Shown here piece by piece: positions 42,149-55,009 of a stretch of 64,000 bases of DNA. Source of the DNA: Enterobacteria phage ATK47. The stretch lies in sequence record NC_055708.1. One strand, written 5' to 3'. The notes beneath the pieces were generated by a model. The model was not told where the DNA came from, made no database searches, and was given only the letters and a program-made list of their open reading frames with translations. The translations under genes were made by a program, and so were the position numbers. How positions within the stretch are numbered: position 1 is the first letter of the stretch; every line of letters starts with the position of its first letter.

Positions 42149-42454
42149 ATGAAATTAGGCGAAACCAACCGAATTGGTCTTTTAACAATATTTGTATCAC
42201 TTTTTTACGCAGCTCTTTCTGTTGCAGTATTACAAAAGGCTTACAGTATGGATGGTGTTCCTGGTTTTGTATTCTTATCGCCGTTTTTGCTATTCGTTGG
42301 AGCATTGTTATTATATGCCACGACTAGTTTCGACCATAACGTCTGGGTCAATTATAAATGTAAATTGTCTGAAGAAGAACACGCAGAAGCTCGTAAAAAA
42401 GCTATTGAATCTACCAATCTAGAAAATTTCATTAAAGAATGTCGAGGAAAATAA
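42149..42454 (+). CDS. small membrane protein (101 aa) ending NFIKECRGK
   Basis: SD GAGGAGA; two hydrophobic helices; conserved C-terminal tail. Confidence 0.6.
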   Translation: MKLGETNRIGLLTIFVSLFYAALSVAVLQKAYSMDGVPGFVFLSPFLLFVGALLLYATTSFDHNVWVNYKCKLSEEEHAEARKKAIESTNLENFIKECRGK

Positions 42455-46947: not shown

Positions 46948-47310
46948 ATGAAAGCATATCAAATTCTTGAAGGTGAACATAAAGGCACTATTTATTTTGA
47001 AGACTGTACTCAAGCCCGGATTATTGTCTCTAAGACTTTTAAAGAAGACGCTATTGTAGATCCAGAAATTTTCTACGGTTTGAATGCTCGTGAAATTGAA
47101 ATTGAACATCAACCTAAAGTTAAAATTGAAGGTGGTCAACACCTGAACGTTAACGTTCTGCGTCGCGAAACTCTGGAAGATGCAGTTAAGCATCCAGAAA
47201 AATATCCGCAGCTGACCATCCGTGTATCCGGTTATGCAGTTCGCTTTAACTCTCTGACTCCGGAACAGCAGCGCGACGTTATCGCTCGTACCTTTACCGA
47301 GAGTCTATAA
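46948..47310 (+). CDS. autonomous glycyl radical cofactor (GrcA/YfiD-like)
   Basis: C-terminal [25 protein letters not shown] glycyl-radical motif. Confidence 0.85.
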
Positions 47311-47790: not shown

Positions 47791-48089
47791 TGGCTCAAAT
47801 CCTATCAGGCTTTGGAACTCATTATGAAGCATCTCGACGCATAACTGAAAGCAATCCTTTTGGCCTTGTTCCGAAGCACAAGAAAATTCAAAGCCTTGAT
47901 GACTTTGAGAATCGCCTATGGGCCCTCTTTAATGAGTACAAGGCATATCTGAAAGAAGACGCTGACGATTGTCTTGAAGAAGATGAGATTGCGTATTACG
48001 AACAACGCCTTGAACAGCTCAAGAACTTCCACCAGGTTCGTGACGAAGTATCTAAAGCAGTTAAAAAGTTAATTCCTTTCAAAGAGTAG
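47790..48089 (+). CDS. hypothetical protein (99 aa)
   Basis: ATG 47790 with SD GAGGAAA. Confidence 0.55.
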
Positions 48090-48117
48090 TTTACTTCTCC
48101 TCTAGTTGTGTTACTAT
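48089..48117 (+). promoter_or_regulatory. T4-type early promoter for regB, spanned by 14-bp anti-SD hairpin
   Basis: GTTTAC, 17 nt, TG-t-TACTAT; TTCTCCTCTAGTTG (48095-48108) is perfect complement of CAACTAGAGGAGAA (48126-48139) containing the SD. Confidence 0.65.
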
Positions 48118-48145
48118 AGACCTGTCAACTAGAGGAGAAATCAAA

Positions 48146-48604
48146 ATGACTATCAATTCAGACGTTTTTATCCGCCGCAATAAACTCCGTCGAATCTTTG
48201 AAACGGAGTTCCGCAAAATAAATGCCAGTATAAAAGATGCTGCAAAGTCTCTTGGACTACCAGGCTTTCATATCAAGTATTCTCAACATCTCTTAGATCG
48301 TGCCATCCAGAGAGAAATAGATGAGAATTACGTTTTTGAATTATTTCGTAAAGTAAAAAATCATGTTAAAGAAGTTGCAGAATTTTTATCAATGCCGGCA
48401 CGTCCAGATGTTGATGAAGATTTTGTCGAAGGTGTAGAATATCGCCCAGGCCGTTTAGAAATAACTGATGGAAATCTTTGGTTAGGACTTACAGTTTGTC
48501 GCGAAAATCCGGCATTCAAAATGAAGACTCTTCAATGCAGAATGGCTATTATTAACAATAAACGACTACCAGGAAAAGCTTCTAAAGCAGTGATTAAAAT
48601 CTAG
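48146..48604 (+). CDS. regB: RegB endoribonuclease
   Basis: MTINSDVFIRRNKLRR...YSQHLLDRAIQREIDE; near-identical to recalled T4 RegB. Confidence 0.95.
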   Translation: MTINSDVFIRRNKLRRIFETEFRKINASIKDAAKSLGLPGFHIKYSQHLLDRAIQREIDENYVFELFRKVKNHVKEVAEFLSMPARPDVDEDFVEGVEYRPGRLEITDGNLWLGLTVCRENPAFKMKTLQCRMAIINNKRLPGKASKAVIKI

Positions 48605-48612
48605 AGGTAAAC

Positions 48613-49155
48613 ATGAGAAAAGCACTACTCGCTGGTCTATTTGCTCTTTCATTATCAGCACATAGCTCCGAGCATACTTTTAGTAATGTCCAACTCGATA
48701 ACTTGAATTATGCTTATCAGTTTGGGGAACAGTTTTCTAAGGATGGAAAATTTAAAACGCATGAAAATATGCATAAGAAAGGACTTGGATACATAATGGC
48801 CGCAATACTATGGCAGGAATCATCTGCTGGTATTAATCTTAAAGATAAGAAAGGTCACCATGCGTATGGAATGTTCCAAAATTATCTACCAACAATGAGG
48901 GCAAGAATTAACCAGCTTGGTTATAATATGACTGATGCCCAAATTAAGAAAATGCTATCTAAGCGGTCTAATTCAACCAGATGGGCTTATATCGAATTTT
49001 CTTATTGGTTAAATATACATAATGGGGATATAAGAAAAGCTATATCCTCATACAATGCGGGATGGAAGACAAGTGCTGGAAGTAAATATGCTTCTGAAGT
49101 CCTAGAAAAGGCTAATTACCTTAAATCAAATAAACTACTGGAAATAAAAGAATGA
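48613..49155 (+). CDS. secreted lytic transglycosylase-like protein (SLT domain)
   Basis: N-terminal signal peptide (LLAGLFALSLSAHS); motifs WQESS, YGMFQ, SYNAGW resembling SLT family E-S / GLMQ / AYNxG. Confidence 0.55.
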   Translation: MRKALLAGLFALSLSAHSSEHTFSNVQLDNLNYAYQFGEQFSKDGKFKTHENMHKKGLGYIMAAILWQESSAGINLKDKKGHHAYGMFQNYLPTMRARINQLGYNMTDAQIKKMLSKRSNSTRWAYIEFSYWLNIHNGDIRKAISSYNAGWKTSAGSKYASEVLEKANYLKSNKLLEIKE

Positions 49156-49499
49156 CCAAAATGTTAGCTTTAATAGTTGGCTTGGTTTCATTTAACGCTC
49201 TTGCTAATACTACATATACTGATGTAACGGAGTATACAAACAGAACGGCGTCTGATTATTGTGGTAAAAGTCAAGAGTGTAAAGTAGATTTTTCACAAAA
49301 ATTGTTATATGCGTATAAAGACGGAGAAAAAGATGGGGCGTCTAGTAGGTTCAAGGCGTCTACCTTAATTAAAAGATACTATAAAAAATGGCAAATATTA
49401 GAATGCTCGGTGGCGGAACCTAAAGATAAGGCAGCATGCAATTCTATGGTGGACCGCCTAGTTGACTCTTATACTAGAGGACTTGCAGCAAGTGATTAA
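49152..49499 (+). CDS. secreted Cys-containing protein (115 aa)
   Basis: Signal peptide MLALIVGLVSFNALA; four Cys in mature part. Confidence 0.55.
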   Translation: MTKMLALIVGLVSFNALANTTYTDVTEYTNRTASDYCGKSQECKVDFSQKLLYAYKDGEKDGASSRFKASTLIKRYYKKWQILECSVAEPKDKAACNSMVDRLVDSYTRGLAASD

Positions 49500-49959
49500 A
49501 AACTATATCAAGGGCGATATTGTCGCCCTGTTTTCTAAAGGTAATAATATTGCTCATGGGTGTAATTGTTTTCATACAATGGGCGCCGGTGTGGCAGGAC
49601 AATTAGCAAAGGCTTATCCAAAAATTCTGGAAGCCGATAAACTTCAAACCGAATTCGGAGACGAGTCTAAACTCGGGACTTATTCGGTTTATGAAAAATA
49701 TTTTAAGACCCATAAAGCTTATTGCTTTAATCTTTATACGCAGTTTGAGCCGGGACCTAATTTTGAGTACTCTGCTTTAATGAATTGTATAATAGAATTA
49801 AATGAATTTGGAAAGAATAAGATAACAAAGCCTGTAATTTATATGCCAAGAATTGGTGCAGGTATTGGTGGTGGAAACTGGGATGTCATCGAAGAGATTT
49901 TAGATACGTATTCCACTAAACTAGAAATTGTGATTGTTGATTGGGAACCGTTATTATGA
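49492..49959 (+). CDS. macro-domain-like protein
   Basis: GDIV...IAHGCNCFHTMGAGVAGQLAKAYP and PRIGAGIGGGNWDVIEEIL resemble macrodomain motifs; start GTG 49492 proposed (ORF track start TTG 49462). Confidence 0.45.
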   Translation: MIKNYIKGDIVALFSKGNNIAHGCNCFHTMGAGVAGQLAKAYPKILEADKLQTEFGDESKLGTYSVYEKYFKTHKAYCFNLYTQFEPGPNFEYSALMNCIIELNEFGKNKITKPVIYMPRIGAGIGGGNWDVIEEILDTYSTKLEIVIVDWEPLL

Positions 49960-54748: not shown

Positions 54749-55009
54749 ATGAAAAAATTAGCAATTGGTTTATTCGCAGTAATGATGGCATTCTCTGTTG
54801 GTGCTACCACAGGAGCTGGTGGTAACCAGTCTTCTGGGCCTTCCAACGGTTCGGTAAATGCATCACATTCTCAGGGTATTGAGAATATCAAATCGAGCTA
54901 TATTAATAGCACTGCCGGACAAGCAACTGAAGCATGGTCAAAGGGTCGAGTAGTTACACGCTCCGTATTCTGTGATATGCCTAATTATGTTGCTAAGTGC
55001 GATAAGTAA
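54749..55009 (+). CDS. secreted Gly/Ser-rich small protein (86 aa)
   Basis: Signal peptide MKKLAIGLFAVMMAFSVGA; two Cys near C-terminus. Confidence 0.6.
   Translation: MKKLAIGLFAVMMAFSVGATTGAGGNQSSGPSNGSVNASHSQGIENIKSSYINSTAGQATEAWSKGRVVTRSVFCDMPNYVAKCDK

Follow-up and report, generated by a model that had tools for sequence, protein, structure and literature searches.

Between regB and vs, phage T4 encodes Vs.1, which is listed as an 'uncharacterized 20.7 kDa protein' (UniProt P13311) and for which a marginal similarity to the SLT domain was all that had been noted (PMC1524935). This resemblance was reported for six vs.1 orthologues (Nolan 2006, PMC1524935), and the same paper cites earlier PSI-BLAST matches for T4 vs.1. 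The SLT resemblance of vs.1 has been in print since 2003-2006 and the genes themselves are not new, while a literature search found no functional study of vs.1. The next gene, vs, is annotated as a valyl-tRNA synthetase (ValRS) modifier, and the documented activity of T4 Vs, or 'tau' (PHROG 1256, PF26829), is cytoplasmic, whereas conserved features of the Vs sequence point to the periplasm. Here, the orthologous gene pair was analyzed in a stretch of 64,000 nucleotides from Enterobacteria phage ATK47 (NC_055708.1); this whole stretch is referred to as the window, and coordinates are positions within it. We consider it reasonably likely that vs.1 and vs constitute an early, translationally coupled and periplasm-directed pair that remodels the host cell wall.

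Several described systems are close to this locus. The same position between regB and vs, the signal peptide and the motifs are found in T4 vs.1, from which the window's gene shows no material difference. Like the family-1 lytic transglycosylases of the GH23 group (Slt70, MltE/EmtA, P. aeruginosa Slt and MltD), Vs.1 has motifs I to IV in this order, a single catalytic Glu, a lysozyme-like alpha-helical fold in its structural model, predicted periplasmic targeting and no conserved second carboxylate where g-type lysozymes have their accessory Asp residues; it differs from them in being very divergent, a minimal single domain of about 160 residues, phage-encoded and early. Phage GH23 or lysozyme-like domains acting on the sacculus outside lysis are likewise known from the virion-borne lytic transglycosylase domain of T7 gp16, from phi6 P5 and from T4 gp5. 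However, these are delivered by the particle and aid entry, whereas Vs.1 is made after infection, carries its own predicted Sec signal and is not known as a virion protein. For Vs, the best functional analogy is T4 Spackle (gp61.3), a small, early, signal peptide-bearing helical periplasmic protein that modulates a muramidase (PMC7677548, PMC7650644). No sequence or fold relationship between Vs and Spackle was detectable in sequence and structure searches, and Spackle targets the incoming gp5 of a superinfecting phage and is not encoded beside its target, whereas vs directly adjoins vs.1.

The vs.1-vs gene pair in the window

The DNA around the locus is 100% identical to that of Enterobacteria phage ATK48 (Mosigvirus, T-even group), and the gene order regB - vs.1 - vs - tk.4 is the order found in T4; synteny of vs.1 was also matched in T4, VR26 and F48. 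The pair comprises the following features:

48613..49155, + strand: vs.1 ortholog, 180-aa precursor, predicted exported single-domain SLT/GH23-like protein (from ORF, PHROG 600 and synteny)
49152..49499, + strand: vs ortholog, 115-aa precursor, small four-helix four-Cys protein (from PHROG 1256 and identity to T4)
49152..49155, + strand: ATGA start/stop overlap of vs.1 and vs, read from the sequence, candidate for translational coupling

The 180-aa open reading frame (ORF), located directly 3' of regB, matched PHROG 600 (E=2.6e-66, residues 1-178) and is about 82% identical to T4 Vs.1 at the same length. The 115-aa ORF between vs.1 and tk.4 matched PHROG 1256 ('valyl tRNA synthetase modifier'; E=5e-35), shares 67% identity with T4 Vs and is labelled vs in the matching GenBank record KT184310.1; PF26829 is present on its close homologues. 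The identity of both genes is thus directly established. Chance ORFs can be dismissed: a Vs.1-like gene is present in 2059 phage records, a Vs-like gene in 794, and both products are listed at the protein level in T4. Time-resolved omics data assign T4 Vs.1 and Vs to the temporal class of early RNA and middle protein (PMC9697503 supplement).

A preliminary description of this DNA, made from the letters alone, had proposed a secreted 180-aa enzyme at 48613-49155, directly 3' of regB, followed by a secreted protein of 115 aa with four Cys at 49152-49499. Both ORFs were confirmed at these coordinates, and both were positive in the signal-peptide test given below. What had been missed is that T4 carries both genes and that they have long been listed there as vs.1 and vs, so that the 'secreted Cys-protein' is the annotated valyl-tRNA synthetase modifier; its proposed periplasmic location contradicts the cytoplasmic function annotated for vs.

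Motifs, predicted fold and predicted activity of Vs.1

The sequence of Vs.1 contains four motifs in the order of family-1 lytic transglycosylases, and the key residues are invariant or at least 90% conserved:

48811..48825, + strand: motif I, WQESS, residues 67-71, with the codon of the predicted catalytic acid Glu69 at 48817-48819
48865..48882, + strand: motif II, YGMFQN, residues 85-90, equivalent of GLMQ, with G86, Q89 and N90 invariant
49048..49065, + strand: motif III, SYNAGW, residues 146-151, equivalent of AYNxG, with Y147, N148 and G150 invariant
49087..49101, + strand: motif IV, Y159-A-S-E-V163 (Y-x3-V), with Y159 invariant and V163 at least 90% conserved

The definitions of motifs II to IV follow the literature, with Y-x3-V as motif IV of the Blackburn & Clarke family-1 set. 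WQESS, YGMFQ and SYNAGW had been pointed out before in this order, and all three are present; the fourth motif, Y159-x3-V163, is added here. In 120 Vs.1 homologues, which range down to 39% identity to the query, the residues E69, S71, G86, Q89, N90, Y147, N148, G150 and Y159 were invariant. Matches to the Pfam SLT domain (PF01464) are precomputed on many Vs.1 homologues, and 22 of 23 diverse Vs.1 relatives matched SLT at E<=0.01, the best at 1.3e-7.

The AlphaFold2 (AF2) model of Vs.1 has a predicted local distance difference test (pLDDT) score of 90, and of >90 for the domain. When the model was searched against the PDB with Foldseek, the top 34 matches were all enzymes of lysozyme-like fold, with a probability of up to 1.0. 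Ranks 1-20 were GH23 proteins, namely g-type lysozyme, a chitinase of GH23, MltD and Slt; behind these came phi6 P5, T7 gp16, destabilase, GH19 chitinases and fungal muramidases. An hhalign alignment of the Vs.1 profile with the C-domain of Slt70 paired E69 with E505 in precursor numbering, i.e., with the catalytic residue E478 of mature Slt70, and YGMFQ with SGLMQ; since the probability of this alignment was negligible with a single-sequence template, it was used for residue correspondence only.

Goose-type lysozymes use additional Asp residues. In the Vs.1 homologues, no second conserved carboxylate occurs between E69 and G86, so that in this respect Vs.1 is closer to lytic transglycosylases than to the goose-type enzymes. 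Besides E69, one further acidic residue is invariant, Glu128; it is specific to the family, as is a conserved N-terminal helix with F23, Q27, N30, A34 and G38. The precursor has a mass of 20.6 kDa, and the mature protein would be basic with about 18.7 kDa. Scans with NCBIfam and PADLOC gave no matches.

Vs.1 is very probably an exported protein of the GH23 type, as had been proposed; the catalytic Glu is kept, and its RNA is early in T4 (PMC9697503). Judging from the conserved residues, the protein is probably also catalytically active. Alternatively, Vs.1 might be a catalytically dead SLT-fold derivative that binds peptidoglycan or glycans, e.g., as a sensor or anchor. This would be in line with the marginal similarity to bona fide lytic transglycosylases and with the lack of any reported activity. 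However, the catalytic Glu and the four motifs do not vary among the 120 sequences, although their identity to the query falls to 39%. Active sites are conserved in this manner, which argues against a dead protein, and we regard this possibility as improbable.

Predicted export of Vs.1 and Vs

Signal peptides were assessed by a crude home-made heuristic, which asks for a positively charged n-region, a hydrophobic h-region of 8-15 residues and small residues at positions -3/-1. It yielded the following predictions:

48613..48666, + strand: predicted Vs.1 signal peptide, residues 1-18, MRKALLAGLFALSLSAHS, with predicted cleavage after A16 or S18
49152..49205, + strand: predicted Vs signal peptide, residues 1-18, MTKMLALIVGLVSFNALA, followed by NTTY, with likely cleavage between ALA and NT

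In total, 5 of the 97 non-overlapping ORFs of the window pass the heuristic. These include Vs.1, Vs and also rI, the T4 counterpart of which has an experimentally cleavable signal peptide (PMC8385771). For Vs.1, the likely cleavage sites lie between AHS and SE or between LSA and HS; the predicted mature N-termini of T4 Vs.1 are SEHTFSNVQLDNMR or HSSEHTF, and T4 Vs is predicted to be cleaved between ASA and S, with SADTSYTEIR or DTSYTEIR as its predicted mature N-terminus. The heuristic was positive in 113 of 120 Vs.1 homologues, and most or all of the seven failures look N-terminally truncated or mis-started. Among the Vs homologues all 39 were positive (26/26 and 13/13). Within residues 1-20, the pLDDT of the AF2 models is 55-58 for Vs.1 and 46-53 for Vs, while the remainder of both models is confident. 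In addition, the N-terminal columns of Vs.1 are less conserved than the remainder (0.46 versus 0.66), and in the family alignment the N-terminal sequence of Vs drifts freely while its signal-peptide character is retained. Export of Vs is also favored by the finding that T4 Vs, produced in full length with a His tag, did not remain soluble in the cytoplasm of E. coli (PMC8076793).

In the CC31/Karamvirus group, Vs carries a canonical lipobox (LSGC) in place of the end typical for signal peptidase I (SPase-I), MKKLFVLLVVVALSGC. The N-terminus of these proteins reads MKKLFVLLVV(V/F)ALSGC (loci L060-L062 and L064), and the group comprises Enterobacter phage CC31 and 32 related records, i.e., 33 in total, in which the genes are still labelled 'vs' or 'valyl-tRNA synthetase modifier'. 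The lipobox pattern used, [LVI][ASTVI][GAS]C closing the h-region, is found in Vs of the CC31 group and not in the window's own Vs. The signal-peptide character of both families is a direct observation, and from it we infer export; as far as such sequence features can tell, Vs is quite likely to be exported.

An N-terminus of this kind may also act as a tether. Vs.1 would then be an auxiliary lysis enzyme of the signal-arrest-release (SAR) type, which is freed when the holin collapses the membrane potential and adds to the activity of gp e. The h-region of Vs.1, ALLAGLFALSLSA, is rich in Ala, Gly and Ser and in this respect SAR-like, and the genes are located near rI in T-even phages and are contiguous with rI in Acinetobacter phage ZZ1. 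In addition, 'some role in cell lysis' has been proposed by Nolan 2006 (PMC1524935). However, the signal peptide of T4 rI, a protein formerly classed as SAR, is cleavable (PMC8385771). The uncharged stretch of Vs.1 spans just 16 residues, with suitable -3/-1 residues and thus plausible SPase-I sites behind it, and vs.1 is expressed early and is non-essential in T4. The genetics of T4 lysis is explained by e, t and the spanins, and vs.1 is not known to be required. A SAR-type lysis function of Vs.1 therefore appears very doubtful.

Linkage of vs.1 and vs

To assess how closely vs.1 and vs are linked, hidden Markov models of both families were run on 97 loci, which had been collected from IMG/VR and from phages in GenBank. 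Both genes were present in 83 loci and vs.1 alone in 14, the latter from Aeromonas T4-like phages, a Kuttervirus and uncultivated contigs, while none had vs alone. Hence, Vs depends on Vs.1 and not the reverse, and such one-way dependence is the pattern of an accessory subunit, a regulator or an inhibitor. In 55 distinct pairs, the start of vs lies at -8 to +7 nt from the stop of vs.1. The pair is found from the Tevenvirinae through the Twarogvirinae of Acinetobacter, in which the identity of Vs is only 20-27%. The earlier suggestion of an envelope-directed module is borne out to the extent that overlap or adjacency of the genes is conserved across the Straboviridae and that both proteins have a signal peptide. 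The signal peptide or lipobox, the two Cys pairs described below and the obligate linkage to vs.1 are sequence features which together point to a periplasmic location of Vs, and we lean slightly towards the view that Vs works with Vs.1.

In many Straboviridae outside the T-even group, a third protein with a signal peptide (PHROG 4957, 130-148 aa) is encoded 3' of vs, at the position of tk.4 in T-even phages. Its mature N-terminus reads 'AWE..PGYPE', and examples were located in related loci:

Locus L005, 3276-3707: PHROG 4957 gene
Locus L058, 3369-3803: PHROG 4957 gene
Locus L075, 3351-3797: PHROG 4957 gene
Locus L070, 1832-2224: PHROG 4957 gene

In Acinetobacter phage ZZ1, the genes vs.1, vs, PHROG 4957, PHROG 6298 and rI are contiguous, and all of their products bear a signal or an anchor.

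Predicted structure and cysteines of Vs

The AF2 model of Vs has a pLDDT of 83.5 and consists of four helices (residues 12-37, 41-64, 69-85 and 90-114), the loops of which are flanked by two pairs of Cys:

49260..49280, + strand: Cys37-x5-Cys43, flanking the loop between helices 1 and 2, invariant in 26 sequences, predicted disulfide
49404..49439, + strand: Cys85-x10-Cys96, flanking the loop between helices 3 and 4, predicted disulfide

The four Cys (C37, C43, C85 and C96) were kept in all 26 diverse Vs homologues; three of them occupy invariant columns of the alignment, and C85 is present throughout but offset by a gap. According to the model, the Cys pairs at the two hairpin loops could staple each hairpin. 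The computed mass of mature Vs is 11.0 kDa, compared with 12.9-13.1 kDa for the precursor. The purified 'tau' factor is said to be about 10 kDa in size.

An exhaustive HMMER search with Vs among 1.84 billion representatives returned 7 clusters only. Six of these contained Vs-like sequences or fragments, and the seventh was a marginal match to a repetitive protein of 378 aa, so that there is no bacterial relative of Vs to borrow a function from. Searches of PDB sequences with Vs alone and with its family profile yielded nothing significant.

Small exported inhibitors of lysozyme-fold enzymes, some with two disulfides, are known from the DUF1311/LprI, Ivy and PliG/MliC groups. LprI-family proteins are helical, and Vs shares with DUF1311/LprI a weak pattern, a Cys pair followed by L-D/N-x-x-Y, which is loosely similar to the Cys...Cys-L-N-x-x-Y of these proteins. 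This lead (Foldseek rank 29, E=6) was followed, but none of 26 Vs members matched PF07007 at E<=10, and hhalign of Vs with E. coli YecT, a member of PF07007, gave a probability of 5.7%; the lead is thus not supported, if also not excluded. In a genome scan, relatives of YecT were restricted to close Escherichia copies, which were too few to build a profile.

Fitness effects in T4 and the role of Vs

In the HIDEN-SEQ transposon study of T4, vs and vs.1 were both non-essential (bioRxiv 10.1101/2025.11.20.689424). In liquid LB, mean insertion counts were 26.6 for vs and 22.6 for vs.1, whereas the eight genes around them (regB, vs.3-vs.7, tk.3 and tk.4) had counts of 130-770 (bioRxiv 10.1101/2025.11.20.689424). 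By these published counts, insertions in vs and vs.1 are about 10-fold under-represented relative to most of the flanking genes. This shared cost is directly observed and specific to the two neighbors, which fits a common function of vs.1 and vs. In M9 glucose medium, vs was the most depleted of all T4 genes (log2 fold change -2.19, adjusted p 0; bioRxiv 10.1101/2025.11.20.689424). The phenotype in minimal medium fits either a role in translation or a role at the envelope. As a comparison for the latter, the transglycosylase of T7 gp16 is reportedly important mostly when the cell wall is strongly cross-linked. The same M9 data set shows a relative enrichment of insertions in nrdA, nrdB and td, and an enrichment in regB (log2 fold change +1.17, p=0.049) that was not significant after correction (bioRxiv 10.1101/2025.11.20.689424, Ext. 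Data Table 6, sheet S8).

The annotation offers an explanation in which Vs is at least partly cytoplasmic and binds the host ValRS. Its N-terminus would then be a poor export signal or part of the interface with ValRS, and the adjacency to vs.1 a matter of operon packing. The 115-aa ORF has long been annotated as vs, biochemical work on a ValRS-binding T4 factor exists (references in PMC8076793), and the strongest phenotype of T4 vs occurs in minimal medium, where amino acids and tRNA charging are limiting (bioRxiv 10.1101/2025.11.20.689424). The authors of that study state that the biological role of ValRS modification is unknown. Moreover, the early regions of T-even phages are dense with overlapping unrelated genes, and tk.4 overlaps vs as well. 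However, a signal-peptide character is retained in all 39 Vs relatives despite the drift of their sequences, and a protein that stays in the cytoplasm would have no use for a canonical lipobox such as that of the CC31 group. The conservation of four Cys at hairpin loops and the lack of any vs without vs.1 among the 97 loci also stand against this explanation. Bacterial ValRS is conserved, whereas Vs falls to 20-27% identity among phages, which argues against a conserved interface with ValRS. We therefore consider a cytoplasmic ValRS-binding role to be rather unlikely.

A second possibility is that Vs serves in the periplasm specifically to inhibit Vs.1 or to confer immunity to it, comparable to Spackle for gp5 or to Ivy, PliG and LprI. 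It would either silence Vs.1 until late infection or shield the infected cell while Vs.1 acts elsewhere. The order of an enzyme followed by a small protein, their stop/start overlap and the dependence of Vs on Vs.1 (no locus with vs only, 14 with vs.1 only) would be expected for such a pair, and the weak DUF1311/LprI-like pattern of Vs may be added. The higher cost in M9 of insertions in vs than in vs.1 (-2.19 versus -0.87) would also be expected if an unrestrained enzyme were harmful. However, the LprI family was matched by none of 26 Vs members, and the alignment with YecT remained at 5.7%. In addition, the cost of insertions in LB is about equal for vs and vs.1, which fits a positive partnership as well. 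A pure inhibitor function of Vs thus has, in our judgment, a minor chance of being correct.

A putative early wall-remodelling module

The favored reading of vs.1 and vs as a wall-remodelling pair can be described as follows. The four genes regB, vs.1, vs and tk.4 would be transcribed early from a T4-early-type promoter 5' of regB, and vs.1 and vs would be translated as a coupled pair via the overlapping ATGA. Vs.1 would be exported by Sec as a 20.6-kDa precursor and matured to a GH23/SLT-type domain that, with Glu69 as single catalytic acid, cuts the bonds between N-acetylmuramic acid and N-acetylglucosamine (MurNAc-GlcNAc) in the sacculus of the host, working from the periplasm prior to lysis. 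Vs would be exported as well, in some phages as a lipid-anchored protein, to give a mature four-helix protein of about 11 kDa in which each helical hairpin is probably stapled by a disulfide. Vs would then regulate, inhibit or target Vs.1, acting either on it or together with it. The pair may thereby remodel peptidoglycan locally without lysis, resulting in a higher fitness of the phage that is clearest in minimal medium or slow-growing cells. The preliminary description had also considered superinfection control or DNA entry as specific roles, and neither gained support here. A role in DNA entry is excluded for the phage itself by timing, since Vs.1 is made after infection and cannot aid the entry of the phage's own DNA.

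Several results weigh against this reading. The window's own Vs.1 scored 19.4 bits (E=7.8e-4) against Pfam SLT (PF01464), which is below the gathering threshold of 21.3. The Foldseek scores of Vs.1 were weak (E>=0.011, TM-score 0.35-0.53), and searches of PDB sequences with Vs.1 alone and with the Vs.1 family profile gave no significant match. Vs.1-like genes also do without a Vs partner, as in phages of Aeromonas, in Ackermannviridae and in others. In M9, the depletion of vs.1 (log2 fold change -0.87, p=0.0055) was not significant after correction (adjusted p 0.155; bioRxiv 10.1101/2025.11.20.689424), and the phenotype of vs.1 insertions could be due to polarity on vs. For Vs, neither an informative structural nor an informative sequence relative was found in these searches, so that its biochemical role is a guess. 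Finally, a T4 factor binding the host valyl-tRNA synthetase was described by Mueller & Marchin 1975/1977, as cited in PMC8076793. If the 10-kDa factor attributed to the vs locus binds ValRS in the cytoplasm, export of Vs is difficult to explain.

In its most extended form, the proposal holds that Vs is not, or not only, cytoplasmic but an exported, disulfide-stapled partner or regulator of Vs.1, with a lipid anchor in some phages, and that the two form an unrecognised early periplasmic module for peptidoglycan remodelling in most Straboviridae which determines fitness under nutrient-poor conditions. This is put forward tentatively, as a possibility somewhat short of probable. If true, the ValRS label of vs would represent a historical mis-assignment of the genetic locus, a binding artefact arising after lysis, or moonlighting. 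The comparative evidence on vs conflicts with a functional label that has been copied into hundreds of phage genomes, and an exported partner of Vs.1 provides an alternative account of the minimal-medium phenotype of vs. The T-even phages would then possess an overlooked early, regulated cell wall-remodelling step in one of the best-studied viruses.

Neighboring genes and transcription context

The genes and the putative promoter surrounding the pair are as follows:

48089..48117, + strand: probable T4-early-type promoter 5' of regB, GTTTAC (48089-48094)-N17-TACTAT (48112-48117), read from the sequence
48146..48604, + strand: regB (Pfam REGB_T4, E=1.9e-69; same order in T4)
49492..49959, + strand: tk.4/adfM macro-domain gene (Pfam Macro, E=2.2e-6; PHROG 335)

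It is probable that regB is the first gene of an early transcription unit regB-vs.1-vs-tk.4. A terminator scan identified no terminator-like site between regB and the start of tk.4. A scan for the sigma-70 consensus did not detect the promoter at 48089..48117, and the totals of the promoter and terminator scans were at chance level. GGAG, the site of RegB, occurs in the window less often than expected from shuffled sequences and is absent from the Shine-Dalgarno sequences of both vs.1 and vs.

The start of tk.4 is probably the GTG at 49492, resulting in an overlap of 8 nt with vs, and not the mechanically listed TTG at 49462, as suggested by the N-termini of homologues (MI.KYIKGDIVALF). T4 Tk.4 is AdfM, an anti-DarTG2 factor (bioRxiv 10.1101/2025.11.20.689424). 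In GenBank record KT184310.1, the tk.4 macro-domain gene is without any annotation.

Upstream of regB, a perfect 14-bp stem was observed at 48095-48139 (RNA minimum free energy -21.6 kcal/mol, z=-4.2; 0 of 200 shuffles were as stable). Its 3' arm contains the Shine-Dalgarno sequence GGAG of regB (48134-48137) and its 5' arm overlaps the early-type promoter, so that the hairpin would form only in read-through transcripts from upstream. In such read-through RNA, it would mask the ribosome site of regB together with the RegB cleavage motif.

The same early cluster contains, 5' of regB, a Vs.6 ortholog (PHROG 1209, 46948-47310), the product of which is labelled 'pyruvate formate-lyase' in ATK48 and as a GrcA-like 'autonomous glycyl radical cofactor' in the T4 RefSeq record. 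Elsewhere in the window, the signal-peptide heuristic was also passed by two further ORFs. One, at 42149-42454, encodes 101 aa (PHROG 9798) with weak similarity to a membrane-protein PHROG, and the other, at 54749-55009, encodes 86 aa (PHROG 2243), has 2 Cys and is rich in Gly and Ser in its mature part.

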